A DNA stretch of 64,000 bases, taken from assembly GCA_964632945.1 (NCBI GenBank), contig CAZWCX010000028.1, forward strand, positions 711 through 64,710, given 5' to 3'. Shown one piece after another: positions 3,074 through 19,784 of the stretch. The position numbers and the translations under genes were made by a program. The DNA is from an uncultured Planctomycetia bacterium (GTDB lineage: Bacteria; Planctomycetota; MHYJ01; WSZJ01; CAZWCX01). The notes under the pieces were generated by a model. It saw only the letters and a list, made by a program, of their open reading frames with translations, ran no database searches and was not told the origin of the DNA. The stretch's first letter is position 1, and every line of letters begins with the position of its first letter.

Positions 3074-3075
3074 GC

Positions 3076-5466
3076 CTATTCCTCACCACCGACGGTGGTC
3101 GGCTCTTTCGCCACCACGCGGCCCTCCGCATCCAGAAGGACGACCACCGCTGCGGCCCCCTGATGCGTGTCGTCGGCGAAGAGGGTCGCCGCGCCGTCGG
3201 TCCCGACCGGACGGGCTTTCCTTTCTTCGGGATCAGCCAGCAACGATGTCCCGGGATCCGCTGCCTTTCCTCGCAGGTCCGCGCTGTGCCCGAGCGGTTC
3301 CCCTTCGACGACGACCTTGCAGACCAGTCGCTTCCAAGCTATCGACTTGATCGAGATCCGGCCTTCCTTCCGTGCGGCAGCCCGTACGACCAGCGACGGG
3401 ACGACGCACTCCTGAACGGAAAGCCCGCCGTGAGTGTACTCGGTTCCGTGCTTGAAGCAAGCGATGCCCCGCGCCACGGCAACGCGATGTTCGGCACTCC
3501 ATGTCCAGGGAACGGTCACGGCGTCGGGCGTGGCAGTCTTCTTCAGGGTCGCACAACGCCCCCAGCGGGTCTCCGTGAGGAATTTCGGCAGCTCTACCTT
3601 TGGAAGCCCACCGGGAAGCAGGAGCCAGCCGTGGTCTGTGACCACGCGGACTTCTCGCCAACCGGCCTCCAAAAGGCCACGGATTCGCGCCGCGAGTCCT
3701 TCCACCTCCTCCTCGATGCGCCACGCCAGCTTCCAGCCCTGGTCGTGCCCCATCCGGTCAAGGCTGCCGTACTCCGTCCAAGCACGACCCTCGGGATCGC
3801 CGCCCTCGTTCGCGCCAAGGACTTGGATGGTTGCTTCGCCCAGAAGCTGCTTGAACCTGTCGCTTGTCAGTTCCTTTCCGGTGGCGGCAATCGTCGGCCT
3901 GAACTCGTCACCCAGACTCGAATTGCTGAGGAGGCCAGCGATCGGCGAGGCTGCCGGTTTCGCTGTCGGCGTCACCGTCGGCATCGCCGCCCAACGCCTC
4001 CCGCGATCGACCTTGACGCCCGCGCTTTCGAGGGCCGCCACCACCTTCTGGCCAACGTCGAAGCGTAACCCGTCGGCGAACAGCACGCAGCACCCCTTCG
4101 GGAGGTCTTCAGGCTTGCCGCTCGGCGTGGCGCAAGGTAGCGCCGCAGAATTCTCAGCGACCTTCTGAAGCTGTTCCGCCCCGTCCTCCAACCACGTCCG
4201 ATACATGCCGCACACGGCGGTTCGCACGGCGACCACGTCCGCTGGTTTTCGAACTATGGCGAGTGCATCGAGAACCGCAGCATCCGCCTTCCATCCCCAT
4301 TCGGCGTACTGCTCCGCCATGGCCTCCGGAGTCGAGCCTCCGAGCGTTCGTTCCGTCGCCAAGGCGAGTACGGCCAGGAACTCCAAGGCCCCTGCCAAGG
4401 GCGAGTCGCCCAGCTTCGACCAGACGCAAGCACGACGCGCGCCGTGCTGCTTCTCCAGCTCCGCGATCCCCTTTCGGGCGACAGTAGGTGGCTTCTTGCC
4501 GACCTCGACGAGGTCCTTCCGCAGCGAGTCTTCCAGTCCCTCGTTGTCCTGGGGCCAGACTGGCGCGTCGGCGTCAAACATACTCGGGGCGGTCTTCGGC
4601 CTGGCCCGGCGGAGCAGCTCTTTCAAGTTCGGGTAGAGTGTAGGGGCCTCCTGGAATCGCCGCCAGACGTGTGCCCAGTGTCCGCGTCCCTGGCCCTTCA
4701 CGCCGAGGGACTCGCCAGCGGTCAGCTCACCGTCCTTCTCCGGATCGAACTTGTACTTCTGCTTGCAGACGGCCCGGAAGGAACCCCACCCGGCGTCGTC
4801 CATGCGACCTCGGACCTCCTTCGGATCGTTCAGCCAGGTGAGGAGATCGCGTACCGGATCCTCGGTCATCAGACTGTTGAAGAACTCGGCATCGAGACGC
4901 TTGTTTCGCAGTTGATCCACGGGCATGTCCGCCAATCGCACCGCCGCTCGCAACAGTGCCTCGGCGGTGGCGTCATCCCGCGCCACTTCCAGCCCGAGGC
5001 CACCATTCTTGGTCTGGAGGAAGGCCGCAAGCGTCCAGTCCTTGCCGTTCTGTTGCGTCCAGACGACGCCGCGAAACTGAAGCTCAACCAGAGGTCGAAG
5101 CGGTGGCGGGCAACTCTCGACGGCCCGGAGTGCCTGCCTGCTCACGCCCGGCAGGTAGATCACCGGGACAACCTCCGGAGCCCAGGTGGCCTCGGGCAGG
5201 GATCGACCCAGCATGCACCGCAACCAGATCGCCGGGCCGGTCTGCGTGGCCGGATCGTGGTCCCCGAAGGTCAGGAAGTGGGCGAGCCGCTGTCGAAGTC
5301 GCGGGACCAGTGCCAGCCACTGACGGTCTTCGTCCGCCCAAAGAATGGCGGCGGGGGCAACCATGTCATCGTGGTTGCACGCCGACATGCCGGACAACGC
5401 TCCGAGGAGCGCGTCGAACACGGTCGCGCGCGTGAACCGTTGGGTCGCCGAGCCATCGGCAGTCAT
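3076..5466 (-). CDS. pglZ: BREX alkaline-phosphatase superfamily protein PglZ
   Basis: 796 aa with the PglZ signature ...VRVVTDHGWLLLPGG.... Its start overlaps the upstream stop in ATGA. Confidence 0.9.
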   Translation of the reverse strand: MTADGSATQRFTRATVFDALLGALSGMSACNHDDMVAPAAILWADEDRQWLALVPRLRQRLAHFLTFGDHDPATQTGPAIWLRCMLGRSLPEATWAPEVVPVIYLPGVSRQALRAVESCPPPLRPLVELQFRGVVWTQQNGKDWTLAAFLQTKNGGLGLEVARDDATAEALLRAAVRLADMPVDQLRNKRLDAEFFNSLMTEDPVRDLLTWLNDPKEVRGRMDDAGWGSFRAVCKQKYKFDPEKDGELTAGESLGVKGQGRGHWAHVWRRFQEAPTLYPNLKELLRRARPKTAPSMFDADAPVWPQDNEGLEDSLRKDLVEVGKKPPTVARKGIAELEKQHGARRACVWSKLGDSPLAGALEFLAVLALATERTLGGSTPEAMAEQYAEWGWKADAAVLDALAIVRKPADVVAVRTAVCGMYRTWLEDGAEQLQKVAENSAALPCATPSGKPEDLPKGCCVLFADGLRFDVGQKVVAALESAGVKVDRGRRWAAMPTVTPTAKPAASPIAGLLSNSSLGDEFRPTIAATGKELTSDRFKQLLGEATIQVLGANEGGDPEGRAWTEYGSLDRMGHDQGWKLAWRIEEEVEGLAARIRGLLEAGWREVRVVTDHGWLLLPGGLPKVELPKFLTETRWGRCATLKKTATPDAVTVPWTWSAEHRVAVARGIACFKHGTEYTHGGLSVQECVVPSLVVRAAARKEGRISIKSIAWKRLVCKVVVEGEPLGHSADLRGKAADPGTSLLADPEERKARPVGTDGAATLFADDTHQGAAAVVVLLDAEGRVVAKEPTTVGGEE

Positions 5467-5831
5467 GGGGCACCTGCTATCGGTCGTACCCGGATCTTGC
5501 GGTCGCTGATGACAATGAACTGCCCGTTCCCGTGGGCCTCCACGGTCGGCCAGGCCTCTGCGAGGCGCTTCAGGCGTGAGGCCAGGTCGGGGGTGTCCAG
5601 GCGGACAAGCAGCACGCCAGAAGAAGAAAGGCGCCGGTGGAAGACGAGTTCCCCGAAGTCCTTGTCGTCGGTGATGACTACCCGACCCTCGCGTTGGGCA
5701 AGGGCCAGAACGTCGTCGTCAGACTCGCCGGGCAGTCCCTCCGCAGCGTAGAGGACATCGTGGCCCTGGGCGCGCAGCCAGGCAACGATGCCGCCGTGGA
5801 GGTTTTCGTCTGCCAGGAGCTTCATGTGCAT
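5463..5831 (-). CDS. DUF5615 (PIN/Mut7-C-like) putative toxin
   Basis: 122 aa (MKLLADENL...DVL...LALAQREGRVVITDDKDFGELV) matches DUF5615. Paired with the DUF433 gene 4 nt upstream. Confidence 0.8.
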   Translation of the reverse strand: MHMKLLADENLHGGIVAWLRAQGHDVLYAAEGLPGESDDDVLALAQREGRVVITDDKDFGELVFHRRLSSSGVLLVRLDTPDLASRLKRLAEAWPTVEAHGNGQFIVISDRKIRVRPIAGAP

Positions 5832-5835
5832 TCCG

Positions 5836-6066
5836 CTATTGGTAGAGGATCTCTTCCATCCCGATCACGGAAGCGGCGTAGAGGAGAGCGGCTCGGATGT
5901 GCTCAGGGGTGAGACGCGGGTGCCCCTGGAGCAGTTCTGCTTCCGGCATGCCTCGGCCCAGTTCCGCGAGGACGTGCTCTACAGTGATCCGGGTCCCCTT
6001 GAAGGTGGGCTTGCCCATCATGACTTCGGGTCGTTCGACGATGTACTCGCGCCAGTCCATGCTCAT
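5836..6066 (-). CDS. DUF433 putative antitoxin
   Basis: Internal Met of ORF 5836..6297 (MSMDWREYIVERPEVMMGKPTFKGTRITVEHVL...) matches DUF433. The ATG at 6066 overlaps the pglX TGA. Confidence 0.8.
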   Translation of the reverse strand: MSMDWREYIVERPEVMMGKPTFKGTRITVEHVLAELGRGMPEAELLQGHPRLTPEHIRAALLYAASVIGMEEILYQ

Positions 6067-9000
6067 GACTTCTCCTTCCTCCGCGAAGTCGGAGCTTCGC
6101 GGGCGGCCCGCTTTTCGGCCAGGGTCAGGTGGTGGTCGTTGATGCGCTCGCCGTGGAAGACATGATACCACGGTGCGGTCGCGGGGTCCTTGCCCCGGTC
6201 CTTCCGCCAGTGGACGTTCGGCGTCTTGCGGAGGACCTCCGCCTCGACGAAGGGACGGATGTTCATCCGCACGCCATCGTTCAGGTCGGGTTCCCACCCG
6301 ATGGCTTGCGCTTCGAGCGGCTTCCAGCGCACGAAGATGTCATGGGGCTTCTCCCCGTCGGCGATGAGCTTGAGACGACCTTGGAGGTCCTTGGCTGCGG
6401 CGAGCCGAACGTCGGCCCCGGCCGCGCCGCGCTTGGCGTCCTCTTCCTGGCGGCGGATCCAGTCGCCCAGGTAGGTGTAGATCAGCTTGTCGAGCAGTTG
6501 CCGGTCGAGCCGGTGGTAGTTCACGAGGGCGTGGAAGCCGTCCTTCCGACCGTCCCAGATGTGCCAGATGAACGGGCGGTGGTGGAACAGCTTGCAGTGC
6601 TGATCAAAGAAGCCATCGTGGAGCCATTCGTCGAGGCTCTTTGCCGCGAATCCCACAGCGGCAAGAAGTTGGTCGAGCTTGGAGGGCGTCCAGTCCTTCG
6701 CGCATGCGGCGGCAAGGAGGTCGCGGAGACGTTCCGACGCTGGGCGCTCCTTTCCGACGACGGGAAGGCATACGATGCCATCATCGTCAGCGTGGGCTTC
6801 TAGGCCGTCGAGGCCGAGGGCTGGACAGTCGGGGAAATCGGAGCCCGTCTGGCGGGGCCAGCGGTAACCCACGAGACGGGCCACGGCGACTTGCAGCGGG
6901 TGCTCCGAACCCTTAGGATGTCCGCAGAACAGCCACTGCGTCGGGTCATCGGAATGGGGCTTGGGGAGGCCGTCTGGGTACCTAGCTGCGGCGACCTTTT
7001 GCCAGCGGGCGAGGTCGAAGGGGACTTTGACAAGGGTAATGTTCGTGACTTTCAGGGTCTGATCGACCTGCCGAATGGCTTGGTGAAACTCCGAAGACGA
7101 TGCGAAGCACCAAATGGCCGCTGTGAGTACATCATCGTAGGGAAGGAGGACAGCAGCGTTCTTGTCGAACCGATCACCCAGATATAGCGTGCAGGGCAGC
7201 TCTCCGATCTGGCTGACGAGTATACCCTTCTTGTTCCACGCCATTCCACCAGCGAGGATCGCTTCACCACGGCTCCCACGATCGCAGAGAGTGCCGCGCC
7301 CCTGCTCCCAGAAGACGATCTGTTCCATTCCACCAAACGTGCGCGTATCCTCCACCGTGGTCTGAAGAAACTCCCAGTCACAACCGCGCTCCGACAGTTC
7401 CCAAAACTGACGAAAGAAGTAAGGACTATCCTTACTTCCAAGCCCGTGAACCCCGTGAGCGTACTTCGATAAGAGGGCGAATCCCGGAACGTCCGCGAGC
7501 GTCACTCTTGCATCTGGATTCCGGAGCTGGCTGCTCTGTGCTACCAGAACGACCTCCCCCCCCTCCATGCCCTCCATGCACCGGAGCAGGTTCGCCTTCA
7601 CCTCCGGCTTTCTTGCATCCGACACATCCAATCCAGCAATTGCATGGCCGTCGCGGATTGCCGCGGATAGAACAAGCAAGGCCGCGTTCACGATCTCTCC
7701 GCTAATCGTGGAGAATGCCCCTGGTCCCAACCGAGCAGCGAGGTTCCACGAACACCTCTCCAGCAGCATCTGGCGGAGGCTCGTGTAGGTCGTCAGAAAG
7801 AGCCAATTCTGCGGTGTGACAAGAGCTGTAGTCGCGGCCTGTGAACAGAACTCCAGACAGCGCAGAACAAACGCGGTGGCTAGGTCCGCCTTGCCTAGCG
7901 GGTAGTGGGCCAGTAGGCACTCTTGAATAACCTCATCTTGTTTCCCTCGCCCGAGGTATGGCACATTCGTGATGACCAAGTGGTACTTCGCTGCGAGCAT
8001 CTCGGCTGCGTGCGCCACGCCCTGGGCCATAACGCCCATCTCGACCGCCTGCGGGTCGCCTTTGACCTTCTCCTTCTGGAGTGCCTTTTCGAGGAGAGGT
8101 TGGAGGCTTCCAAAGTCCGCCTCGAACAGGTCGCCCGGCCGGACGGCGCGATGCGGGTCGATCAGACTCCCGAGTTCGGGGGCTTGCTGGAAGAGATCGT
8201 ACAGCCGCTCCAAACCCGCCCGCAGCCTCGCATCTCCATTTGCCAGGGCCAGCCATTCTTCCTTCTTCCCCGCAACGGCCAGGCCGGAGCAAGCGACGTT
8301 GACCGACGGCAGGTTCCTATACCCTCCCGCGTCCGGGAACTTCCAGGCGGCCAGCGCGAGGGCGAAGGCGGCGATCTGCGTGCAGCGAGCATCCAGCTCC
8401 AGTCCATGCACGTTATCCTTGAGCACGGCCTCGCACGCATCCCGCGCCGAGAGCCGCTCCTCCTGCATTCGGACCCTGACCAGGAGGTCGAAAACGGCGA
8501 CCAGGAAATGACCCGAGCCGCAGCAGGGGTCAAGTATCCTCAGTTCCGCCGCTCGGGTGGGCCAGCCCGGGAACGTCCCCGCCGCCGGTCGCCCATCGGA
8601 TAGAAATCGCAGGTACTCGAATCCGTAGCCAGGGAGGGCGACCCGCCTACGGCGCTCGTCTTCGGAGACTTCACCCTCTTCCCCGTTCTTTCCATCGAGG
8701 CTCTGGCTCGCACCACTTTTGGGAATCTGGGAGAGTTGAACCGGCGCACCGGACGCCAGCACCTTTCCGGCCCACCACGCGCCGATCGTATTGTGCAGGA
8801 GGAAGAGAACCATGTAATGCTCGGTGAAAAGCTGCGTGACGGCGGGCAGCGTCTCCCCGGTGATCTTGTCGCCGCTGGCATTCACCTCCTGCTTCCGCTT
8901 CGATTGCCAAAACTGGTAGACCCAGCCGAGGCCATCCTCGGCGGTGAAGATCTCCGAAGGCAGGTCCTCCAGGAGCTTTTCCAGTTTCAGCCGGTGCTCT

Positions 9001-9539
9001 GCCGCCAGCGCAACCTGCAAGGCCGGGTCCTCCGGGCGGAAGATCTGCGGAAGCATGCGCGAGGCGAAGCGCCCGGCGACCGTCCAGAGATCCGGTTTGG
9101 CCCCACCCTTCCCACCCGCGCCGGGGGTGGCGGTCTCCTCCGCAGCGAGTTCCTTGCACTCCTGGAGCGTCACGGGGACACCGTGATCGGGGTGGATCAG
9201 CAGGTGGTTCTCGGCGAGGAACCGGGCGAAGAGCATCCGATGCCAGTGCTCATAGGCGACCTCGTGCCCGAGCCGGTGGATGTCCTGCCTGCCCGTACGT
9301 GCATCGAGCACACCTCCGAGTTGACGCGCCTTGGCGCGGAGCTGCCTGCGGAGGGTTCGCTCCTCAGGCTTGAGGTGCGGGAAGGGCTCTCCCTCCTCGA
9401 CCGCGAGCCGCTGGAGTGCCGCCTGCGCGGCGGCCTCGGAGACATCACGGGCCTCGACGACCGTTCGTTCGAGCTGTCGTCGAAGGTCTGGGGGAAGTGG
9501 CGGCATTCGTCGCGTTTGCTCCTGAACCAATGCCGTCAA
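6063..9539 (-). CDS. pglX: BREX N6-adenine DNA methyltransferase PglX
   Basis: 1158 aa with motif I LDPCCGSGHFL and motif IV VITNVPYLG. Its start overlaps the brxC stop in ATGA. Confidence 0.9.
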   Translation of the reverse strand: MTALVQEQTRRMPPLPPDLRRQLERTVVEARDVSEAAAQAALQRLAVEEGEPFPHLKPEERTLRRQLRAKARQLGGVLDARTGRQDIHRLGHEVAYEHWHRMLFARFLAENHLLIHPDHGVPVTLQECKELAAEETATPGAGGKGGAKPDLWTVAGRFASRMLPQIFRPEDPALQVALAAEHRLKLEKLLEDLPSEIFTAEDGLGWVYQFWQSKRKQEVNASGDKITGETLPAVTQLFTEHYMVLFLLHNTIGAWWAGKVLASGAPVQLSQIPKSGASQSLDGKNGEEGEVSEDERRRRVALPGYGFEYLRFLSDGRPAAGTFPGWPTRAAELRILDPCCGSGHFLVAVFDLLVRVRMQEERLSARDACEAVLKDNVHGLELDARCTQIAAFALALAAWKFPDAGGYRNLPSVNVACSGLAVAGKKEEWLALANGDARLRAGLERLYDLFQQAPELGSLIDPHRAVRPGDLFEADFGSLQPLLEKALQKEKVKGDPQAVEMGVMAQGVAHAAEMLAAKYHLVITNVPYLGRGKQDEVIQECLLAHYPLGKADLATAFVLRCLEFCSQAATTALVTPQNWLFLTTYTSLRQMLLERCSWNLAARLGPGAFSTISGEIVNAALLVLSAAIRDGHAIAGLDVSDARKPEVKANLLRCMEGMEGGEVVLVAQSSQLRNPDARVTLADVPGFALLSKYAHGVHGLGSKDSPYFFRQFWELSERGCDWEFLQTTVEDTRTFGGMEQIVFWEQGRGTLCDRGSRGEAILAGGMAWNKKGILVSQIGELPCTLYLGDRFDKNAAVLLPYDDVLTAAIWCFASSSEFHQAIRQVDQTLKVTNITLVKVPFDLARWQKVAAARYPDGLPKPHSDDPTQWLFCGHPKGSEHPLQVAVARLVGYRWPRQTGSDFPDCPALGLDGLEAHADDDGIVCLPVVGKERPASERLRDLLAAACAKDWTPSKLDQLLAAVGFAAKSLDEWLHDGFFDQHCKLFHHRPFIWHIWDGRKDGFHALVNYHRLDRQLLDKLIYTYLGDWIRRQEEDAKRGAAGADVRLAAAKDLQGRLKLIADGEKPHDIFVRWKPLEAQAIGWEPDLNDGVRMNIRPFVEAEVLRKTPNVHWRKDRGKDPATAPWYHVFHGERINDHHLTLAEKRAAREAPTSRRKEKS

Positions 9540-12500
9540 ATGACGACTGGCCCATCGGTGAGTTTGACGCCGATCAGCGTCCTGACCTCCGCCAACCAGC
9601 GATCCAGATCTTCCGGTGTCCTGATGGTCGCGGCTGGGAGTGCAACCCGGACGGCGTTCGGTTCGAGCAGCTTGGCCGCAAGAAGTGCTGCGGTCTGAAA
9701 CCGCGCCGGTAAGGCATCACGATGGGAGCGCCAACTCTCCAGAGACCGCGCAAGCAGCGAAGCGCGCAATGCCTCCTCGGTGCCCAAAGAAAGGGCGACC
9801 AGGGGTTCGATCGCGGCCTGCCGCACGATGGCGTCCCGCTGCTCCGTCGCTAGTTTCTTCCAAGAATCCAGGGCTGCGAGCCCTGCCGATTCGCGCTGGT
9901 GCATGGCGACGCACTCTCCGTGCAGCTTGACGATTTCGGCGCGCAGCCCCGTCGTCAATCGCTCACACAAGGCTGGAACAGGGTCGGGAGTGGCCAGCAA
10001 GGCACATTGTCGACTGATCGCTTCCACCTCCCGCTCTACTTCCCCGTAGACGGGGAGCCCGCGAGCGTGCGAGAGCAGTTCGTTCAGCACTACCCAGCGA
10101 GGCAAACGCTGCCTCGCCAATTCACCCGCCGCTCGCCAATCCCCGGCTTCCTTGGTGAGCCGGGTTCCTTCATTCAGAATCGCAATCAGTTGTTCATTGC
10201 CGCCGAGATTCTGGAGATCCTTGATGTGGGCTGTGTTGGGGCGCAGCGCAAGGGGAGGGGCACCACCTGCTGCATCGGCGAGCCCGAGCATCGCGGTCAG
10301 GAACGACTCCGCCTTGCTGGCTTCTTCGTTGGCCTGGCACTTGATGTCGATGACGTTGTAGAGGTTGCGGAGAGCGATCCGCTGGGACGCCGTGATCACC
10401 GTGACCTCGATACGGAAGTCGGTCACGCCGATCTTCGTGTGGTCCAACCGCGTTCGATCTACCGGCTTTCCATTCTGCGATGCACGGATTTGTCCGGCGG
10501 TGAGGAGGACGAGCAGGGCGGCGTCGATGGCGTCCTGCGACCAGCCGTACTCATTCCCGCCGAATTGCCTTCGGATTTCACTCCCCTTCTTTCCCGTCCC
10601 CACCCAGGCGAGGATGGCGGAGCAGACGGGGTGCTGCTCCGGGCTGCCCTTGTACCCGACGGCTTCAAGGGCGTCCGCCGCCCCAGCCTTCGTGCGCTTG
10701 AGCACTTCCTCCCAGCCCTTCTGGTCGGCAAGGTGGAATTCCGGAAATTGCCGGACGAGTGCCGCCTCCGCACCTTCCCGCACCGCGGTGAGGAGGTCGA
10801 GGGCAGCGATCTCCTGCCCGCCACCGAGAATCACCCGAGCGCCGCCCAGCACCTGGGTCTCGATGACCACTCGCGCGTTCGCCTCCGCTTGCAGGGCCCG
10901 GGTCTCCATGGCAGCCCGGGCGTCGAGCCCCTCGGGAGTCGTCGGGTTCCCTCGGGTATCCAGGGTCTCCTTGGCCGCCTTGGCTTCGGCGATCGTCTTC
11001 TTCAGATCCTCGGCGGCCCGCTTCGGGATGAAGACGGTGATCAGCGGGCTGTCTACGCCTGCGGCGCGGGCCTGTGCGAGGACGTTGCTCTCCGTCTCGT
11101 CCCAACCGTTGCGGATCCAGACCGGGATCGCCTGGCCGCTCGGCTGTGGAGTTTCGCCGAAGAAGGGTTCGAGCTTGCGGAGCACCTTGGTAGTGCCCTG
11201 GAGCAGCTTGATTTCCTTGAGCCGCTCGCCGACCTCACGTTTGAGGAGGTCGGCGCGTTCCTGCGCCATTCGGGCGTTGTCCCCGAGGATCTTCGCGTAC
11301 CGCTCCCGGAAGTCCACGAGCCAGACGGTGCCCTCCTGCGTCTGAAGTTTGTACTCATCCTCGATGCGCAGCAGCCTGCCGGACTTCTCCAGATCCGCCA
11401 GCAAGGCGGGGATCCGCTTCCTCAGATCGGCGCTGCCCGCCTTCAGGTCCTGAACGAGCAAGTCGGCCAAGGTGTCGGCGGTCGCTCGGACTCCCAGATC
11501 CGCCCCGGCCTGTGTGGGCAGCTTGCCGATCAAGAAGACCAGGGCGCACAAGCGGCCTCGGAGCACGTCATCGGCCGAACCGCCAAGAAGCTCGGCGATC
11601 ACGTTGTGAAGTTCCCGAACTAGAACACCACGCTGGAGCAAATCGGTGGCGACCTGGTCGTAGATGAACGAAGCCGGAACGACGTGGCCCAGGGGTTCCG
11701 GGGCCAGGGCGCGGGCGGCTTCATGGGCAATGCGAAGCTGCGTGCGAAGCTGCCCAGTGAGCCCGCCGCTGTCCACCGCACGGAGGATGCGCTCCCAGAA
11801 CCGTTGGCGCACCGGGAGGAGCGGGTAGTCGGTGACGAGCAGTGCCTCGTCCTCTGGGCAGGGGGCGATCTTGGTACTGACGAGGTGCTTGGAAATCTCC
11901 CCGTGGCACGCATCGAGTACGCTGCGGATCTCGGCCTCCCGGTCGGCTCTCTTTTGCAAAACGACCTTGCGAATGACCGTCTCGACATCGGTGTCGGAGA
12001 GGTGGACGTTGCGCGTGAACCGGCCTTTGAGGCGGCTGAGCTGCGCGGTGCTGGTGAGGGCGGCCTGACCGGTGCCGATCACGATGAGCTTGCCATCGAA
12101 TCGCTTGCTGATCGCCTCCACCACCTCTTGGACGGCGTAGGAGCGATCCTGGTCCTCACCGATGTACTGCTGGACCTCGTCCAGGATGATCGCCGTGCAG
12201 GGGAGCTTTCCATTCGTGAGGAGGGCCTCGCGGAGCGCCTTCACCATCTCCTCGATGGTGATCACGTTCTTGGGCGGGAAGGTCTTCTCGATCAGGTGCA
12301 GGGCGGCCTCCGGCGTGGCGGCGATGGCCGGATCCGCCTTGAGGATGCACTTCGCGAGGGGAGTCGAGACGTAGAGATTCCTCACCTCCTCGTCGAAGTC
12401 TTCCCCGGATTTCTTGAGGTCGGCCCTCACACGGTCCAGGAGGCCCTTCGCCTTGAGCCACAAGACGAATCGAGCACCGGGGTAGTCTTCGGGGAGCTGA

Positions 12501-12970
12501 CAGGACCGGAAGACGACCGCCAGGACTGCGAGGGGCACGCTGGCGTTCGCACCGGGGCCGAGGGTCCCCGCGGCAGCATGGAGCCCCCCATTCTGACGGC
12601 CCTTGGTGGACAGTTCCTTGAGCGCGTCCTTGATCTCTGCGGGCAGATTCGCGATACCTCGCGCCGTGGACTTGTCCGGCAGTGCGTAGTCCGTCCAGAG
12701 ATACCGGAGCACCTTGGCAAGGTGGGACTTCCCGCTGCCGTAGAAGCCGCTGATCCAGACGGCGGGCTGTTCCGGCTTGTCGAGATTCCCGAGGTAGGTG
12801 TCGAGCACAATGGAGAGTCCCTTGTGGTACTCCCCCTCGCAGACGAAGGTCCGGAGTTCGTACATGAGGGTGCGGAACTCCGGGTCCGCATCCGTCACGG
12901 CAGCGACGCCGTTGTTGGCGAGGGTGCTCTTCTCCGGGTCCTGGCGGAAGACATCGCGGTTCTTGGTCAA
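9536..12970 (-). CDS. brxC: BREX ATPase BrxC/PglY (start set at TTG overlapping brxB TGA; ORF track extends to 13465)
   Basis: P-loop GFYGSGKSHLAKVL and the conserved N-terminal VFRQDPEKSTLANNGVAAVTDAD. The ORF-track start at 13465 would overlap brxB by 500 nt, so the TTG at 12970 (TTGA overlap) is preferred. Confidence 0.85.
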   Translation of the reverse strand: MTKNRDVFRQDPEKSTLANNGVAAVTDADPEFRTLMYELRTFVCEGEYHKGLSIVLDTYLGNLDKPEQPAVWISGFYGSGKSHLAKVLRYLWTDYALPDKSTARGIANLPAEIKDALKELSTKGRQNGGLHAAAGTLGPGANASVPLAVLAVVFRSCQLPEDYPGARFVLWLKAKGLLDRVRADLKKSGEDFDEEVRNLYVSTPLAKCILKADPAIAATPEAALHLIEKTFPPKNVITIEEMVKALREALLTNGKLPCTAIILDEVQQYIGEDQDRSYAVQEVVEAISKRFDGKLIVIGTGQAALTSTAQLSRLKGRFTRNVHLSDTDVETVIRKVVLQKRADREAEIRSVLDACHGEISKHLVSTKIAPCPEDEALLVTDYPLLPVRQRFWERILRAVDSGGLTGQLRTQLRIAHEAARALAPEPLGHVVPASFIYDQVATDLLQRGVLVRELHNVIAELLGGSADDVLRGRLCALVFLIGKLPTQAGADLGVRATADTLADLLVQDLKAGSADLRKRIPALLADLEKSGRLLRIEDEYKLQTQEGTVWLVDFRERYAKILGDNARMAQERADLLKREVGERLKEIKLLQGTTKVLRKLEPFFGETPQPSGQAIPVWIRNGWDETESNVLAQARAAGVDSPLITVFIPKRAAEDLKKTIAEAKAAKETLDTRGNPTTPEGLDARAAMETRALQAEANARVVIETQVLGGARVILGGGQEIAALDLLTAVREGAEAALVRQFPEFHLADQKGWEEVLKRTKAGAADALEAVGYKGSPEQHPVCSAILAWVGTGKKGSEIRRQFGGNEYGWSQDAIDAALLVLLTAGQIRASQNGKPVDRTRLDHTKIGVTDFRIEVTVITASQRIALRNLYNVIDIKCQANEEASKAESFLTAMLGLADAAGGAPPLALRPNTAHIKDLQNLGGNEQLIAILNEGTRLTKEAGDWRAAGELARQRLPRWVVLNELLSHARGLPVYGEVEREVEAISRQCALLATPDPVPALCERLTTGLRAEIVKLHGECVAMHQRESAGLAALDSWKKLATEQRDAIVRQAAIEPLVALSLGTEEALRASLLARSLESWRSHRDALPARFQTAALLAAKLLEPNAVRVALPAATIRTPEDLDRWLAEVRTLIGVKLTDGPVVI

Positions 12971-13518
12971 TCCACAGCTCCTTTGTACGCCGTGATCGGG
13001 ACCGCCAGGTAGTTCCAACCTTCGTGGCCGTCGAACAGTCGATAGACGTTCTGGTCGTACTGTCCCGGAAAAAAGACCAGGAGCCGACCCGCGATGGCGT
13101 CCTGGATCTGAGCGATCAGGTCGGAAGCGCGGATGAGGCCGAAGAGCGAGCCGATGCCCGAGAGGGCGACGACGGTCTGGCCGTCGGATTCGCGGAGCAG
13201 CTTGAGAATCGGCGCGGCGGCGGCGAGCTTGAAGTCCTTGAAGGCCATTTCCAGCTTTTGTGGCGCGGTGAAGTAGGAGTCCCGGTACTTGTGTCCACCC
13301 ATCCAGCGGGAAAACCCATGTGTCAGGTCGTGGTGAGCCCAGCCATGCTTCGCGTTGCCCGTCGCCAACGCAAACTCGCCAAGGCGGGCGCGGAGTCGGC
13401 GTTCGTCGGACTTGTCGTAGACCGCGAACCAGACCCGTTGGGGTCCGGCGAGCGAGGCGTCCCATGGCAACGAGACGAACTCGGCGTAGGCCTGGATGAG
13501 CCGTTCAATCTGGTTCAC
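12967..13518 (-). CDS. brxB: BREX protein BrxB (DUF1788), GTG start
   Basis: C-terminal 183 aa of ORF 12967..13821 (VNQIERLIQAYAEFVSLPWD...FFPGQYDQNVYRLFDGHEGWNYLA) is the BrxB family. The upstream part of that ORF is low-complexity. Confidence 0.85.
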   Translation of the reverse strand: MNQIERLIQAYAEFVSLPWDASLAGPQRVWFAVYDKSDERRLRARLGEFALATGNAKHGWAHHDLTHGFSRWMGGHKYRDSYFTAPQKLEMAFKDFKLAAAAPILKLLRESDGQTVVALSGIGSLFGLIRASDLIAQIQDAIAGRLLVFFPGQYDQNVYRLFDGHEGWNYLAVPITAYKGAVD

Positions 13519-14218
13519 GGGACGCCTCGATCTCGACCGGTGTGAGGAGTTGGGGGAAACGGACTTCGAGGACGTCGCCCGCGTGACGCAGGTCGAGGAG
13601 GCCCAGGCGAGCGGCTTCGGCGGCAAGGCGGATGACTTCAGCATCTCGGAGATCGAGGACGCGGGTCCAGAGCGTGGCAAGGAGGGCGCGTCCACGGCAC
13701 CGCGTGAGGAAGCCGAGGGCAAGGGCAAAGACGGCGCAGGCTGGAGTGGCGACCGGGTGGGAGCGCGTCTTGGTGGCGCGGCCTGCAAGGTGCCCGGACT
13801 GTGTCCAGGAGGAAGCAGCATTCCGAGCGACTTTGTCGCGGGAGGAAGGTTTCAATCGACCTTCGGTGAGTTCGAGGAGGCACGGGATGAAATCGTGCGC
13901 TGCCATCCGGGTGCCAACGCGAGCCTGTAGCACGGGTTCCGCCGTAGCCCGAAGGAGGGGGTCCCGTGCCAGCGCACAGAGAAGCGCGAGCAGCGGCTGA
14001 CCGGCGGCATCCTGGTCCCACAGGAATCGAAGAATGCGGAAGAGCGTGATGGAAGGATCCAGCCCATAGACTTCTGCGAGTCGCTGGATCGTGAGACGTC
14101 GGGTGGCGATCGTGCGCTTGCCGAGGACGTTGTCCTCGACGGCGACGCGCTGGTAGTCGGCGAGTCGAGCGGACGGAGGGAGGGCGCGCAGGAGATCGGT
14201 TAGTTCGCGGAGCATCAT
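13505..14218 (-). CDS. brxA: BREX protein BrxA (DUF1819)
   Basis: Begins at the internal Met MMLRELTDLLRALPP... of ORF 13505..14491. First gene of the canonical brxA-brxB-brxC-pglX-pglZ-brxL order. Confidence 0.75.
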   Translation of the reverse strand: MMLRELTDLLRALPPSARLADYQRVAVEDNVLGKRTIATRRLTIQRLAEVYGLDPSITLFRILRFLWDQDAAGQPLLALLCALARDPLLRATAEPVLQARVGTRMAAHDFIPCLLELTEGRLKPSSRDKVARNAASSWTQSGHLAGRATKTRSHPVATPACAVFALALGFLTRCRGRALLATLWTRVLDLRDAEVIRLAAEAARLGLLDLRHAGDVLEVRFPQLLTPVEIEASREPD

Positions 14219-14839
14219 GGTCCGGCTGGTGTGGGTGCCCCGCGGGCCGCTGCGGAAGCCGAATCGGTCAGGCCATGGGTCGGCTCCGCCACGGCTGGCC
14301 ATTGCCGAGGACCGCTCGACCACGGAGGAGAATCTCCCTCTGCGCATCCGTCGATCTCTCGATCGCGCCACTGGAAGCCAAAGGCGCCTCGCGATCAGGG
14401 TGGGCCTGATGCGGGCGGGGGGGCCGGGGAGTTGACCGTGGCTCGAATGGGGCCAACGGTCGGTCCACGGCGGCGTGCCGGACCGTATCAAACGGCTCCA
14501 GGGTGGTCAAGGAACGGTCAGGGTGCAGCCGAGGGGTGTGGGTCGGCTGCAAAGTGCATTCGGGAGTGAACCCAGGATTCAGGCTCGGGGCAGATGTACC
14601 CAGGTAGCTGCGGGTGGACTATTGGCGGGGTTGAACACCAGCCCGGCGCTTGCGTTGGTAGCACTTCATGCGAACGCCCCAGGCTACTACGCGACCGATG
14701 ATCGGCGAGCAGCGCGGAAGTGGCGAACGATCCGACGGACTTCAGACAACTCCACCGACGACGGGTGGCGGGTGTGCCCGCGGATCTGTGAAGGGGTCTC
14801 AAGTGCCCCGGCGTCAGATCAGCGGTTGGATTCGGCAAG
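14219..14839 (-). promoter_or_regulatory. long noncoding leader/promoter region upstream of brxA
   Basis: 620 nt with only low-complexity ORFs between the HTH gene and brxA. No promoter motifs were confidently identified. Confidence 0.3.
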
Positions 14840-15319
14840 TCAGGTCCGGGAGTCTCCTGTCAATTTCCCCCCAAGTCCAAACTCGTGGAGCCTCTCGAGA
14901 ATCTCCTGCCTTCGTCGAAGGAGTTCCGAAGTGGGAAGGGAGGAAAGGTCGGCCGAGGCCTCTTTGTCTTCTGGCTCCGTAGCCGGACCGAAAAGCCGAA
15001 GGCCCTTGAGCACTTCGAGGCTGGTGCGGACCCGGAGACCCAAGTCGTCCGATTCCTCGATCGCGACGCGTACGCTTTCGATGGCCGAGCCGACAAGGCC
15101 GAGTAGCTGGCCACGGGCGACAGTGGCCATTTCAACTCGCGTTTGTTCCAGCGCGGAGACAAAGTCGGGGTCGCGAATCCACCGATGGACTGTTGAGCGA
15201 GCGATCCCCAAATCGGACGCGACCTTAGATATTGGCGTGCCGACGACCACGGCTTGGAGGACGCGTGCCCTTTTCGCTGGGAGATCCACGAACCCAACGA
15301 CTGTCTCAATCTGTCGCAT
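14840..15319 (-). CDS. small helix-turn-helix domain protein (putative regulator)
   Basis: 159 aa with a clear HTH (ISKVASDLGIARSTVHRWIRD). Same strand as, and immediately upstream of, the BREX operon. Confidence 0.6.
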   Translation of the reverse strand: MRQIETVVGFVDLPAKRARVLQAVVVGTPISKVASDLGIARSTVHRWIRDPDFVSALEQTRVEMATVARGQLLGLVGSAIESVRVAIEESDDLGLRVRTSLEVLKGLRLFGPATEPEDKEASADLSSLPTSELLRRRQEILERLHEFGLGGKLTGDSRT

Positions 15320-15460
15320 GGTGAACCATCATACAAATCCCATGTCTGACAACCAAATGCAGCCGCTCCGGCAGCGACAGAATCCTGGATTCCGACGGGA
15401 ACGAGGAAAAACTGCCATTGATGCGGCGACCGCGGTCACGATTCCCGTCTGGGTAATCAA

Positions 15461-15505
15461 CGACAACTAGAATCCCGGGGGCGGCGACAACTAGAAACCC
15501 GGGGT
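15461..15505. repeat. tandem direct repeat of a 21-nt unit with 3-nt spacer, followed by a perfect palindrome GGCGACG-CA-CGTCGCC
   Basis: The two units (cgacaactagaatcccggggg and cgacaactagaaacccggggt) and the palindrome were read directly from the sequence. They lie upstream of the HTH gene start. Confidence 0.6.
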
Positions 15506-15736
15506 CCGGCGCCTCCCCGGCCGATGTCTCCCGGTACTATTAGCCCCCGGGCGACGCACGTCGCCTTACCGGGTTCGCGTGCCTTCATTTTGTTTCCCTT
15601 GCGGCCCCATCTCGGCCCGGTTGCCCGGGACTGGGCTCTCGTCACTCTGCCGGAAGGGGTGGACCTCCAGGTCGTTCGACCCTCTCAAGTGCGCGCAAAT
15701 CGCATCCTGGCACCTCCGGTCCCCCCACTCGACACC

Positions 15737-15955
15737 TCAGTTCGGCTTCTTCAGATCCGCGTGCTCCATCCCTCCGGTCGAATGTCGCCAGCTCTTCTCC
15801 AGCGGGAGGCGAGACTCGCGCGGCAACTGCTCAACGCGCCTTGCGCGCCGTCTCCGCCACCTCCTCGAAGCAGGCGCGGATCGTCGGCAGGTGCAGGGGT
15901 GCAGGGTCTTGAGGTTCTCCTGCACAAGGGTGCGCTGCTCGGTCGCCTTACTCAT
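15737..15955 (-). CDS. small Arg-rich basic protein (72 aa), hypothetical
   Basis: Internal ATG of ORF 15737..16024 is preceded by a strong SD (ggggaggtggcccATG). It lies 185 nt downstream of the RT stop on the same strand. The Arg-rich product has a low-complexity look. Confidence 0.35.
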   Translation of the reverse strand: MSKATEQRTLVQENLKTLHPCTCRRSAPASRRWRRRRARRVEQLPRESRLPLEKSWRHSTGGMEHADLKKPN

Positions 15956-16142
15956 GGGCCACCTCCCCGGCCGCAATCGGGCACAGGCGTCGTACACGCC
16001 CACGTTCACGGGGTCGACCTTCACGTCGGTCGGCAGCTCGGGCCGACCCGCCGCCCAACATCAACTTCGGGTTCACTGCATCCTTGAACCGGTGGTGCGG
16101 CTGATCCACGTCCACTCTCGTGGCCGCGCCCCGCCTGGGTGT

Positions 16143-17681
16143 TTACCCCGGCCCAGTGACTTTCGGAACGCCCATCTCGTCTGCGACGCGATTCAGGTCC
16201 TTCTCGCGCAGGTCGCGTCGCATCGAGTCGTGGTAGACGCCCGGAGTGTCCCGCCGGTCCCACCGTACATCGGCGGGGATGGCGTCGCGCAGGGTCGCCC
16301 ACAGCAGGACAGCAGCCAGGCGGCGACCCGCGTCGATGGGACCTCCCGATAGTAGAGTGCGGATCGAGCTTCGACATCCAAGGCAATTGAAGGAGAGGAC
16401 CATCCGTCGCGCCTTGCGCGACTCGTCCAGTGGGGTCGTGATGTGGATGTCGTCCGGATCTAGGCTCCCGAGGTCGGCGCACAGGTCCGCGAGGACGGCC
16501 GGGTCCAGGGGGTCGCGACCGGGGTGGTCTCGACGGAAGGCGTCTGCCGCCTCGACCACCCGGCGGGGTCGGGGGCTCCGGGACCACGGGCCGCCGGACC
16601 CGTGCAAGACGGTTTGCACGAAGGAATGCGTCACTCCCGGCGCGAAGCAGACGCTGATGAATGGGGTATTCGTCGTGCCCTTGGTGGGTACGTGGAAGTT
16701 CCTGCGCCAGCACGCCTTGCAGCGTGACTCCCCCTCGCCTGGCGCACGGTAGGGGTGATCCGTTGTTGCTCCCGCGGTAAGAGAAGCGTCAACCGCTCTC
16801 TCACCCTCCTTGCGAGGAAGAGCACCATAGACGGCCACCCGGTCTTCCTCCCCGTCCTTAGGCGGATCGCAGGGAGTATGGAGACGACTATTTCCGCATC
16901 CCGCGGTGCCATCCCCAGGGGAGCGCGTGAAGGTCTCGCAGCCGCATAGGCTGTGGTAGTCGGTTTCGATCTTCCCGGCAGGGATTGTCTTTCGCACTTG
17001 ACCGTCGGCCGCGACGCGGAAGTCCACACCGAGCACCGTCATCTCCACCGCCCGCAGGTCCCCAACCTCGCACTCGACTCCGAGGCCTACGGCCCCCAGC
17101 GTGCGGGCGATCGCGTACGCGCCTGCCCACGCCTCGCCGCGGGTGAGGCACGGCACGATCATGTCGTCCGCATATCTGATGAGGCCGGGAAGACGGAGCC
17201 GCGAATCCATCTCCCCGAGCACCAATTCGGCGAGGATCGGGGACATCGGACATCCCGCGACGATCCCCGTCGGGACGACGCGACACCGACGCTCGATCTC
17301 CTCGACCCAATCCCCAACGATACCGCCGTCGGCCAGGCGCCGCCGGAGAACACCCAAGTCGATTGAGTCGAAGCACTTCACCACGTCCGCGTGCAGCAGC
17401 CAGGTCGCCCCGGTGGCAACCGCGCGGGTGATGTCCAGGACGGCGCGGACGGCACCCCTGCCCGCCCGGCAGTAGCTCCGCGGTGACAGGAGCGGCGTGA
17501 GCGGCGCCACGAGAATCTCATCAAGGATCTTGCGGCCGAGATCCCGGTCCTTCCTCCGCGGGCACCAGCGAGTCTTGCCCCGCGAATCCAAGACTCGGTT
17601 CGGGGTTCGCCACCGGTGCATTCGGATGCGATCGAATAGGGTGCGATCTACCATGTCTAGTAGAACCTTGACATAGAACAC
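16143..17681 (-). CDS. reverse transcriptase with Cys-rich C-terminal extension
   Basis: RT motifs 1-7 present: SYCRAGRGA, HADVVKCFDSID, AGCPMSPILAELVL, YADDMIV, LGVDFRV. Motif 0 is missing. The ~260-aa C-terminal part has CxC...C...C and CxxC-x5-H clusters. GTG start at 17681; an ATG (MVDRTLF) lies at 17654. Confidence 0.85.
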   Translation of the reverse strand: MFYVKVLLDMVDRTLFDRIRMHRWRTPNRVLDSRGKTRWCPRRKDRDLGRKILDEILVAPLTPLLSPRSYCRAGRGAVRAVLDITRAVATGATWLLHADVVKCFDSIDLGVLRRRLADGGIVGDWVEEIERRCRVVPTGIVAGCPMSPILAELVLGEMDSRLRLPGLIRYADDMIVPCLTRGEAWAGAYAIARTLGAVGLGVECEVGDLRAVEMTVLGVDFRVAADGQVRKTIPAGKIETDYHSLCGCETFTRSPGDGTAGCGNSRLHTPCDPPKDGEEDRVAVYGALPRKEGERAVDASLTAGATTDHPYRAPGEGESRCKACWRRNFHVPTKGTTNTPFISVCFAPGVTHSFVQTVLHGSGGPWSRSPRPRRVVEAADAFRRDHPGRDPLDPAVLADLCADLGSLDPDDIHITTPLDESRKARRMVLSFNCLGCRSSIRTLLSGGPIDAGRRLAAVLLWATLRDAIPADVRWDRRDTPGVYHDSMRRDLREKDLNRVADEMGVPKVTGPG

Positions 17682-17783
17682 AAGTTGGTTGGCCTTGTGC
17701 GCACTACCGCCGACGTGTGTCCGCGTCTCGCCCCATCCTGTCTGTCTTGGCGCAGTTGCGCCAAGTCGGGCGTAGTATGCTGG

Positions 17784-18296
17784 TTATCCATCTCCCAAGT
17801 GGATCTGCCGCGAGACTCGCTGGGCGGCCGTATCGATAATCCCCGCGACCCGCTGGAGATCCTCGGTAGTCATCGCCTCGATCTCGTCCTCATATCGGTC
17901 CGGATCAGTCGCGACCATTTCTGCGCGCTTGCTCACTGCTGCCCGCGCTCTCGCGGCAAGTCGCAGCAGCGAGGACTGCAGTCGCAGGAGGGCTTTGTAG
18001 CCAGGCTCGGTGACACAGATCGACTGCCAGACTATCTGATCATCTCCTGCAGGTACTTGATTGGGTTGTTCCACCACTGCGTCCTTTCGTGCAGGCACTT
18101 GATCGGAGCTGCGTCTAAACACCCTGCCGCAGTTGGCAGGCTGAAACTGCGCGGTTGGAGCTATCAACGGACAACCACTACGAAATCCGCACGGGTCCTC
18201 GCACTTGATTATACAATTGTCGCAAATAAAAACAGGTCGCAGAATTCGCGCCCGTTCTCGCGGCTCTAAGCAAACCGGGTATGCTCGTCTCCTCAT
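17784..18296 (-). CDS. Cys-rich hypothetical protein (170 aa), in frame with the downstream RT across one TAA
   Basis: ORF has an N-terminal Cys cluster (CDNCIIKCEDPCGFRSGC) and a helical C-terminal half. Stop TAA at 17784-17786. The 34 codons to the RT start contain no stop and are in the same frame. Confidence 0.4.
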   Translation of the reverse strand: MRRRAYPVCLEPRERARILRPVFICDNCIIKCEDPCGFRSGCPLIAPTAQFQPANCGRVFRRSSDQVPARKDAVVEQPNQVPAGDDQIVWQSICVTEPGYKALLRLQSSLLRLAARARAAVSKRAEMVATDPDRYEDEIEAMTTEDLQRVAGIIDTAAQRVSRQIHLGDG

Positions 18297-18668
18297 CCGG
18301 AGCTAAAGTGTTTGGCAATCAGCCGCGGTTGCGCAAAGCTAGGTTTCGCCAAGACAATCCGCAACTGCCGAGATTCCTCTTGACAGCGTTTCTGGGAAGT
18401 CAGGCGGAACGAGAAGTAGGGCGCCTGGCAGGATCGAAGGGACGGTGTAGGACATGTTCCGTCCTTGTCGGGAGACGCGCGCACCGCTGGTCATGGCCCA
18501 GCGGAGCCACTTCTTTGCGCCGGGTGTAGATACACCCGATACGCCGAAAAGCTGACGCAAGTCCGCAATAATCGGCGAGAATCTGTTATTGCGCTGTGAG
18601 TAGCCAGTGTGGTACAAAGACAGTCGTTCTCGAGGTTACGGCCAATTCGCGTTCGGTTCGTGCACTGA

Positions 18669-18712
18669 ATGGGGTTCAAGAGGTCGCAGGTTCAAATCCT
18701 GTCGCCCCGACT
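18669..18712 (+). other. tRNA-like T-arm plus acceptor 3' strand (possible tRNA 3' fragment or att remnant)
   Basis: Sequence gcagg-TTCAAAT-cctgt then cgccccg-a matches a T-stem, a 7-nt T-loop and an acceptor 3' strand. No complementary 5' acceptor strand was found within 90 nt upstream. Confidence 0.35.
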
Positions 18713-18860
18713 TCCCTGGAAGCCAAGCCGAACGCGGGTTCCCGCATTCCCACCCCGATCAACCGATTCACCCCTCCTCCGGGCCCCGCGCGCACCCTTG
18801 ACCCCCTCCGCCCGGCGCGGTATGGTCACCCCCTTCCGTGGTCCCCGTCGGAGGCTGCCC

Positions 18861-19784
18861 ATGAACCGCTTCCCGCTCTTCGCCGCCCTCGTCGGCGCGC
18901 TCCTCGCCGTCGCGGCCCTTTTCGTCTCCCAGGGGGCGCGCAACGAGGTTGCCGATCTTCGTGCCGCCCCGCCCGCCAAGGATCCGGCGCTCGAGAAGCT
19001 CTCCGCCCGGATCGATGCGCTCACCGAGGAAGTGCGCGGCCTTCGCGAGGGGCGGCAGGCCGTGGACGAGCGCGTGGGGGCGCTCGAGCGCGACCTCGCG
19101 CTCGCCCGCCAGGCGATCGAGCGGCAGGCGCAGGCCCTCGAGGCCGCGACCCTCACCCCCGCCCGGCCGGTCGAGCCCGCCGCTGCGCCCGATGCCGCCC
19201 GCGAGGCCGAGAAGCGCGCCGCGGCCAAGGCCGAGTTCGACCTCTTGCGCAAGAAGGTGTTTTCCGGCGAGGCGACCGCGGAGGAGTCGGAGCGCTTCTG
19301 GGAATTGGCGCGCACCTCCGGTGCGCTGGCCGAGGTCATCCAGGAACTGGCGCAGAAAGTCGAGCAGGTCCCGGCGGACGTGAATGCCCGCATGCAGCTC
19401 GCCCAGGCGTATCTGGCCAAGCTCTTGTCGGTGCCGGACGGTCCGGAGCGCGGCACCTGGGCGATGCGGGCCGAGGGGCAGTGGCAGAAGGTCTTGGAGT
19501 TGGACGGTGCGCACTGGGAAGCGCGCTACTCCCTCGCGGTGTCGTGGAGCTACTGGCCGGAGCAGTTCAACAAGACGCCGGACGCGATCCGCCAGTTCGA
19601 AATGCTGCGTGAACAGCAGACGCGGATGGCCCCGGATCCGGAGCAGGCGAACGTCTACCTCACGCTGGCGATGCTGTACCGGAAGATGGGGAATCACGAG
19701 AAGGCGCGCGGGGCGTTGGAAGAGGGTCTGGCGCGGCACGCGGGACACGATGGACTGAAGAAAGCGCTCGAGGCCGGGCGGTAG
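18861..19784 (+). CDS. membrane-anchored coiled-coil/TPR-like protein
   Basis: Internal Met (MNRFPLFAALVGALLAVAALFV) of ORF 18669..19784. One N-terminal TM helix, a coiled-coil and a C-terminal TPR-like region. Confidence 0.55.
   Translation: MNRFPLFAALVGALLAVAALFVSQGARNEVADLRAAPPAKDPALEKLSARIDALTEEVRGLREGRQAVDERVGALERDLALARQAIERQAQALEAATLTPARPVEPAAAPDAAREAEKRAAAKAEFDLLRKKVFSGEATAEESERFWELARTSGALAEVIQELAQKVEQVPADVNARMQLAQAYLAKLLSVPDGPERGTWAMRAEGQWQKVLELDGAHWEARYSLAVSWSYWPEQFNKTPDAIRQFEMLREQQTRMAPDPEQANVYLTLAMLYRKMGNHEKARGALEEGLARHAGHDGLKKALEAGR

Follow-up and report, generated by a model that had tools for sequence, protein, structure and literature searches.

A divergent reverse transcriptase beside a planctomycete BREX operon shares its reading frame with an upstream open reading frame across a single TAA, perhaps by chance

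Among described reverse transcriptases (RTs), the closest counterparts of the protein discussed here are the group II intron and G2L enzymes (GsI-IIC RT, PDB 6AR1/7K9Y; G2L4) and the CRISPR-associated RTs (RT-Cas1 and Cas6-RT-Cas1; PDB 7KFT). The defense-associated RTs of the DRT/UG classes and the retrons resemble its locus in another respect, as stand-alone RTs with a small upstream partner, here in a defense island beside a bacteriophage exclusion (BREX) operon. We analyzed a 64,000-nt window of DNA from an uncultured Planctomycetia bacterium (GenBank assembly GCA_964632945.1, contig CAZWCX010000028.1, positions 711 to 64,710), in which an RT gene is preceded, across a single TAA, by a 170-codon open reading frame (ORF). 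The initial annotation of this stretch had offered four explanations: a recent nonsense mutation, programmed readthrough or recoding, a sequencing error, or a genuine two-gene arrangement. The last of these fits best: we read the locus as two ordinary genes with a structured spacer between them, their frame being shared by chance, and give this reading a rough probability of 0.55. The argument turns on the following features:

16143..17681, minus strand: RT gene, from GTG 17681-17679 (512 aa) or ATG 17654 (503 aa) to TAA 16145-16143, with YADD and an intact core
17682..17783, minus strand: 34-codon spacer from the TAA to the RT GTG, free of stops and of starts
17746..17765, minus strand: perfect 8-bp hairpin, CTTGGCGC-AACT-GCGCCAAG, beginning 18 nt past the TAA and without a U-tract
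17657..17791, minus strand: bridging 44-codon ORF in another frame, from ATG 17791, which overlaps the TAA (ATGGATAA), to TAG 17659-17657
17784..18296, minus strand: upstream 170-codon ORF, from ATG 18296 to TAA 17786-17784
17784..18077, minus strand: ORF-A', a probable small gene of 96-97 aa within the 170-codon ORF, from GTG 18077 or 18074 to TAA 17786-17784
18078..18296, minus strand: Cys-rich 5' part (first 75 codons of the 170-codon ORF), a probable untranslated leader and promoter
18213..18208, minus strand: perfect TATAAT, within the codons for CDNCIIKC and 131 nt upstream of the small gene's probable GTG

With the group II intron and G2L RTs the protein shares the fingers/palm core, motifs RT1-RT7 and the YADD sequence; the catalytic triad is present, in ADVVKCFDSI (motif A) and IRYADDMIV (motif C). 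These enzymes supply both the nearest structural match and the best NCBIfam model. AlphaFold2, given 67 relatives, modeled residues 61-270 with predicted local distance difference test (pLDDT) scores of 86-97, and the top Foldseek match was GsI-IIC RT (1e-11); the NCBIfam model, group II intron RT/maturase TIGR04416, scored 56 bits against a cutoff of 300. Unlike the group II enzymes, this RT has no GIIM/maturase (X) domain (at E<=1, RVT_1 was the sole Pfam match, 6e-14 over residues 40-202), its C-terminal region is unique, and as annotated it lacks helix 1 of the N-terminal extension (NTE) and the RT0 loop. Rfam cmscan found no group II intron RNA domains (E<=5 on 15000-19500, gathering threshold on the whole window).

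By sequence, the CRISPR-associated RTs are closest. The best PDB match was Cas6-RT-Cas1 (7KFT, 2.7e-9), and the nearest relatives, which share 35-40% identity over only the ~190 residues of the RT core, are CRISPR-associated RT(-Cas1) proteins, AEP-TOTE-RT proteins and group II RTs; domains found among the 58 best relatives were Cas1 (18), Cas6 (9), GIIM maturase (6) and AEP-TOTE primase (4). The protein itself, in contrast, carries no Cas1 or Cas6 domain. No CRISPR-like direct-repeat array occurs in the 64 kb, and the scan for Cas1 covered part of the window's ORFs.

The likeness to the DRT/UG and retron systems lies in the arrangement and hardly extends to the protein. Generic RT and CRISPR-RT models led the PADLOC ranking, whereas the UG26, UG4, Drt9 and retron RT hits reached 15-32 bits and covered the palm domain only, with no full-length class model among them. 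The best class-specific match was to UG26 (32 bits, residues 72-204), the retron RT models gave only 15-24 bits, and the NCBIfam models Drt4 and Drt3a, whose cutoffs are 450 and 200, scored 21-22 bits. The upstream partner differs as well, in that here it seems to be a protein without a known family. We considered the upstream region as a template non-coding RNA in the manner of retrons, DRT2 or DRT9 and rejected it: Rfam recognized no family of any kind in the window, the predicted fold of the Cys-rich upstream region was not unusual (z -0.9), and the sole long-range inverted repeat, 70% complementary between 17726-17752 and 18347-18373, is no more than chance would give.

Sequence searches placed the RT alone in its lineage: among about 15 billion proteins it is a singleton. 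No ortholog came from an exhaustive phmmer search of 1.84 billion cluster representatives, which below 1e-30 returned only the protein itself; the next match stood at 3e-14. A word-indexed search of 5.8 billion clusters likewise returned no ortholog of either the RT or the upstream ORF, only the sequences themselves, one identical Logan contig and distant RT domains. Pattern scans of contigs from genomes, metagenomes and viruses, together with tblastn and blastn against plasmids, gave no ortholog of the locus. Neither gene thus has a recognizable ortholog in these collections, which leaves the comparison of fused and split loci suggested in the initial annotation without material.

The initial annotation was accurate about the geometry. 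The codon starts of the 170-codon ORF and of the RT ORF are all congruent to 2 mod 3, which places the two ORFs in the same frame; the 102 nt between them (17783..17682) comprise 34 sense codons, read as PAYYARLGATAPRQTGWGETRTHVGGSAHKANQL, with no stop and no ATG, GTG or TTG; and a product made across the TAA would span 170+1+34+512 = 717 codons, as had been proposed. What this geometry does not show is any excess over chance. Stop-free windows of 102 nt arise in 40% of mononucleotide shuffles of the spacer, in 55% of positions across 15300-18700 (both strands) and in 70% of positions across the whole 64 kb, whose G+C content is ~67%, and the spacer is in fact open in two of its three frames. 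Two ORFs have a chance of 1/3 of falling in a common frame, which brings the overall expectation of the arrangement to ~0.13-0.2.

The TAA itself appears to be genuine. A Logan contig from SRR14787579 (SRR14787579_876103, L001, 1606 bp) is 100% identical to positions 17103..18708 of the window, including the TAA and the entire spacer, and both gene calls are present on it as well; SRR14787579 may represent the same reads as the genome assembly. Because this contig carries the identical TAA, an assembly artifact is unlikely. The option of a sequencing error, whether one that made the TAA or a masked frameshift joining ATG 17791 to the RT frame, thus lost most of its ground: nothing direct speaks for it, apart from the fragmented appearance of the source assembly, and we regard it as very improbable. 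The frameshift version also fails on register, since the peptide of that frame does not fit the RT N-terminus where it should. Its matches to three RT relatives were weak (22-26 bits) and wrongly placed, the 'DRQDG' and 'L..L..G' matches (22 bits) lying ~34 residues out of register.

Base composition changes character at both ends of the spacer. The last 34 codons 5' of the TAA have GC1/GC2/GC3 values (G+C at the three codon positions) of 0.71/0.41/0.76 and the first 34 RT codons have 0.62/0.35/0.65, whereas the spacer has 0.68/0.65/0.56, a non-coding pattern. Coding-type periodicity is thus kept up to the TAA, lost across the spacer (GC2 0.65 > GC3 0.56) and regained at the GTG. The codon log-odds of the spacer (-0.08) are ambiguous, and AlphaFold2 gave it pLDDT values of 43-51, even with 67 homologs aligned. 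The perfect hairpin that the spacer contains looks like an intergenic element: a hairpin of this kind with 8 bp occurred in 0.7% of spacer shuffles (p 0.007), the 191-nt region folds with z = -2.6, and the window holds 22 comparable perfect hairpins, at least 3 of them at ORF ends. It might act as an attenuator, a processing site or an mRNA stabilizer.

A stop codon followed by a stable hairpin and an open frame leading into an RT also brings to mind the gag-pol readthrough of retroviruses of the murine leukemia virus (MLV) type, where the RT ORF likewise lies in frame past a single stop with RNA structure downstream. Applied here, such a scheme would have the small protein and the RT made separately and, at low frequency, as a fusion of ~717 or ~643 aa through hairpin-aided readthrough or recoding of the UAA, and the length of the spacer would complete the RT N-terminus, so that the fusion alone would have a complete NTE. 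If true, this would be a gag-pol-like strategy of separate-plus-fused expression in a bacterial defense RT of a previously unseen lineage. We consider it highly unlikely. The locus is bacterial, its stop is UAA (in the context UAA-C) rather than the UAG of MLV, and the hairpin begins at 18 nt rather than at the ~8 nt of known stimulators such as the MLV pseudoknot; no pseudoknot was found. In bacteria, termination is most efficient at UAA, and the known cases of bacterial readthrough involve UGA or UAG. The spacer lacks coding periodicity, no conservation indicates selection, and the shared, stop-free frame on which the idea rests would arise by chance in 13-20% of cases. Programmed readthrough as proposed in the initial annotation is unsupported.

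The ORF upstream of the TAA falls into two parts of different character. Its last 96 codons have codon-position GC values of 0.71/0.45/0.64 and log-odds of 0.155 against a coding mean of 0.17, and a Shine-Dalgarno-like GAAAGGA (18088-18082) lies 4 or 7 nt ahead of the in-frame GTGs at 18077 and 18074. The independent gene call on the Logan contig also starts at GTG 18074 (P0002, 96 aa). A single-sequence AlphaFold2 model of this 96-aa protein (mean pLDDT 79) shows two long helices with paired terminal strands (residues 19-21 / 91-93), and the last strand finishes 3 residues ahead of the stop, as predicted for a self-contained domain. ORF-A' is thus probably a real small gene encoding a helical-hairpin protein, to which we assign no function: searches of Pfam, NCBIfam, PADLOC and PHROGs returned no family for it, and Foldseek with the 96-aa model returned generic hairpins only (E>=0.3). 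The N-terminus of the small protein (DDQIVWQSICVTEPGY; 17997-18083, minus strand) weakly resembles the RT0 helix-1 motif of a distant RT, P0146 (NLEKAWQSMCLRHPSY; tblastn E 0.25). At ~150 residues upstream of RT1 this segment is out of register, and the resemblance is probably due to chance.

The Cys-rich part, in contrast, is probably not coding. Its codon-position GC is flat (0.57/0.55/0.52), its codon log-odds are -0.12, and its Cys codons sit within an AT-rich stretch that includes the TATAAT, one of only two copies of that hexamer on both strands of the 64 kb. No matching -35 element was found near it. Most likely this part is an untranslated leader with a promoter region. A ClpX-type zinc finger was considered here and rejected, as it amounted to a 13-residue half-match (E 0.022, far below threshold) that overlaps the TATAAT. 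An ORF on the opposite strand (17685-18269), whose Cys/Arg/Ser/Leu-rich translation is of the shadow type, was rejected as a true gene.

Taken together, these observations suggest the following arrangement. A promoter around the TATAAT at 18213-18208 would drive a leader, followed by the gene for the 96-97-aa helical-hairpin protein, with a genuine TAA. Next would come the 102-nt untranslated spacer with its stable hairpin, and then the divergent, group-II-intron-like stand-alone RT, starting at GTG 17681 or ATG 17654. The pair would form a two-gene operon in a defense island, with a type 1 BREX operon directly downstream of it, and may act in phage defense. We prefer this reading because chance alone would give the shared, stop-free frame with a probability of ~0.13-0.2, because the periodicity breaks at the spacer, which holds a hairpin, carries no RT0 signal and is modeled with low confidence, and because ORF-A' has its own Shine-Dalgarno sequence, coding statistics and self-contained predicted fold, with its TAA reproduced. 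In addition, the coding statistics of the RT are normal over all 512 codons (GC3 0.77, codon log-odds 0.18 against the coding mean of 0.17), and BrxA-L, PglX and BrxL follow downstream on the same strand. With its start at 17681 or 17654, behind an untranslated spacer, the RT would consequently be without the first NTE helix and the RT0 loop that are common to its relatives.

This last consequence is where the case for two separate genes is weakest, and several observations weigh against it. According to PMC8363836, every non-LTR-type RT has an NTE in which the RT0 loop links two helices. The 150 best relatives typically have 33-55 N-terminal residues more than a protein begun at GTG 17681; the RT begun at 17681 or 17654 is ~40 residues shorter than ~95% of its nearest relatives, and only 7 of ~137 full-length matches are comparably short. 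The length of the spacer suits the missing NTE helix 1 and RT0 loop, and MAFFT sets the spacer's single Trp beneath the conserved Trp of 'AW..V', with a block pattern similar to that of the homologs; a register-fixed position-specific scoring matrix gave the spacer +2.9 bits (p~0.04). Neither RT start has a well-spaced Shine-Dalgarno sequence, an AAGG lying 11 nt upstream of each, and none of the collections searched contained an ortholog that would show the split state to be conserved.

The initial annotation was therefore right, by length, that an N-terminal region is missing from the RT, and it is the proposed source that does not hold. The motif of NTE helix 2, 'L..L..G.Y.P', is recognizable within the RT ORF as TLFDRIRMHRWRTP, and the missing helix 1 and RT0 loop would, from this register, map to the 34-codon spacer and not to the Cys-rich ORF. 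A few tblastn and MAFFT alignments do run into and across the spacer, and profile methods score nothing there: a custom hidden Markov model of RT0 gave 0.2 bits, the level of the other two frames, a second custom model likewise gave nothing, hhalign produced no alignment within the spacer, and adding the spacer to the RT left the Pfam and NCBIfam scores unaltered. Judged by these comparisons, the evidence for RT0 in the spacer is at noise level, and RT0 is not demonstrably encoded there now.

These points bear most directly on a decaying or truncated RT, the main rival to the two-gene reading, which we consider possible but on balance unlikely. The RT frame would once have begun at or upstream of the TAA, as a normal RT with a Met near 17790-17800 or as a fusion to the helical-hairpin domain, until a nonsense mutation (e.g. 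TAC or CAA to TAA) removed NTE helix 1 and the RT0 loop; what is left would be a relic or a shortened enzyme made from the internal GTG or ATG. Residue 83 of GsI-IIC RT pairs with RT residue 78 as numbered from the codon after the TAA, and the TAA accordingly falls, in both length and register, where relatives have their Met. The conserved-Trp coincidence and the absence of any start codon from the spacer point the same way, as does the rarity of TAA as a stop here (2 of 27 crude gene calls). The RT, however, is itself one of those two, so TAA alone is no sign of mutation. (The small gene and the RT each terminate with TAA, at 17784-17786 and 16143-16145.) The missing RT0 signal and the non-coding periodicity of the spacer mean that such an event would be old; yet over its 512 codons the RT ORF has remained open and keeps full coding statistics, and the hairpin in the spacer has an intergenic look.

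Other signs of possible decay lie in the RT itself. It scores 52 bits with RVT_1, compared with about 130 for relatives, and its motif A-B segment is ~15-20 residues shorter than theirs. Motif B reads VAGCPMSPILAE, compared with PQGSPLSPLLAN in relatives: the near-invariant Q has become A, and an N that is invariant in one alignment (A1) and at least 90% conserved in another (A2) has become E. Beyond the palm, most of the 546-aa model from residue 276 to 546 (ORF residues about 242-512) has pLDDT values below 50, and within this part the ~140 residues at ~240-380 have coding log-odds near zero, a GC3 of 0.53-0.65 and pLDDT values of 25-35, that is, weak coding statistics and no predicted structure. 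The singleton status of the RT and a decayed IS21-family remnant ~70 nt past its stop, a sign of local decay, are also what a degenerating gene would lead one to expect.

As to the nature of the C-terminal half, Gly, Pro, Arg, Thr and Cys are abundant in residues ~240-380 (16540-16960, minus strand), which lie between the palm and the C-terminal helices. No homolog was found for the C-terminal ~270-280 residues, a weak negative, since the word-indexed search of 5.8 billion clusters missed even the parent protein (P0001). Hidden frameshifts were rejected: all 148 of 148 significant tblastn high-scoring segment pairs lie in one frame, and the other frames gave nothing at E<=10. An origin from the IS21 transposase IstA was also rejected, with no match in Pfam, NCBIfam or the word-indexed search (the last being unreliable).

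A variant of the two-gene arrangement concerns the bridging ORF, whose geometry fits a translational-coupling relay, possibly by chance. Having finished ORF-A', ribosomes would reinitiate at ATG 17791, translate the 44 codons and stop at TAG 17659-17657, within a hairpin that sequesters the RT start. A second reinitiation would follow at ATG 17654, 2 nt after the TAG. Both junctions have typical coupling geometry, including the ATGGATAA overlap at ATG 17791; in the minimum-free-energy fold, CUAUGUC and GACAUGG form a predicted 7-bp stem over ATG 17654; and the bridging frame is open over just this stretch. About half of such windows are open by chance, however. The GGGAG that abuts ATG 17791 is too near to serve as a Shine-Dalgarno sequence, a family search with the bridging peptide returned zero matches, and comparative support is lacking. 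We therefore think this relay improbable and retain the simpler version of two genes with an untranslated spacer.

The surroundings of the pair are those of a defense island. Downstream of the RT, and on its strand, lies a complete type 1 BREX operon (1028-14491, minus strand); the neighboring features are:

1028-3073, minus strand: BrxL
3079-5466, minus strand: probable PglZ
6066-9539, minus strand: PglX methyltransferase
9539-13465, minus strand: BrxC-like protein
12970-13821, minus strand: BrxB
14843-15319, minus strand: helix-turn-helix gene, between the IS21 remnant and BREX
15460-16090, minus strand: probable decayed IS21-family remnant
18650-18712, plus strand: tRNA-like stretch, GGGGTTCAAGAGGTCGCAGGTTCAAATCCTGTCGCCCCGAC, resembling a variable arm, T-arm and 3' acceptor strand

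The fragments at 15460-16090 are presumably of IS21 origin, judged by features typical of that family. They comprise the C-terminal end of IstA around 16070 (VKVDPVNVGVYDAC) and an N-terminal istB fragment from ATG 15956 (MSKATEQRTLVQENLKTLH) that is frameshifted, its continuation (LHLPTIRACFEEVAETARKA) reading in another frame. Two 20-nt end repeats, CGACAACTAGAA(T/A)CCCGGGG, lie in tandem at 15461-15504. The deletion that took most of the insertion sequence could also have taken genes beside the RT. On the other side, G+C content steps from ~0.55 to ~0.72 at the tRNA-like stretch, which may be an att-site remnant at the boundary of the BREX/RT island; 18650-18712 drew no call from ARAGORN or Rfam, and no intact tRNA occurs in the 64 kb. 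With BREX downstream and the tRNA-like stretch and its G+C step upstream, the locus is at the edge of an imported defense island.

If the two-gene reading is correct, the in-frame arrangement is biologically meaningless, and annotating the locus as a pseudogene or a recoding site would be unwarranted. What would deserve attention instead is the RT, which stands alone in its lineage (none of the 1.84 billion representatives is a relative below E 1e-14) and is marked by changes in motif B, by its short N-terminus and by a C-terminal half found nowhere else. Known from a single copy, the RT, together with a small protein without a known family beside BREX, is a candidate for an uncharacterized RT-based defense module or the relic of one.

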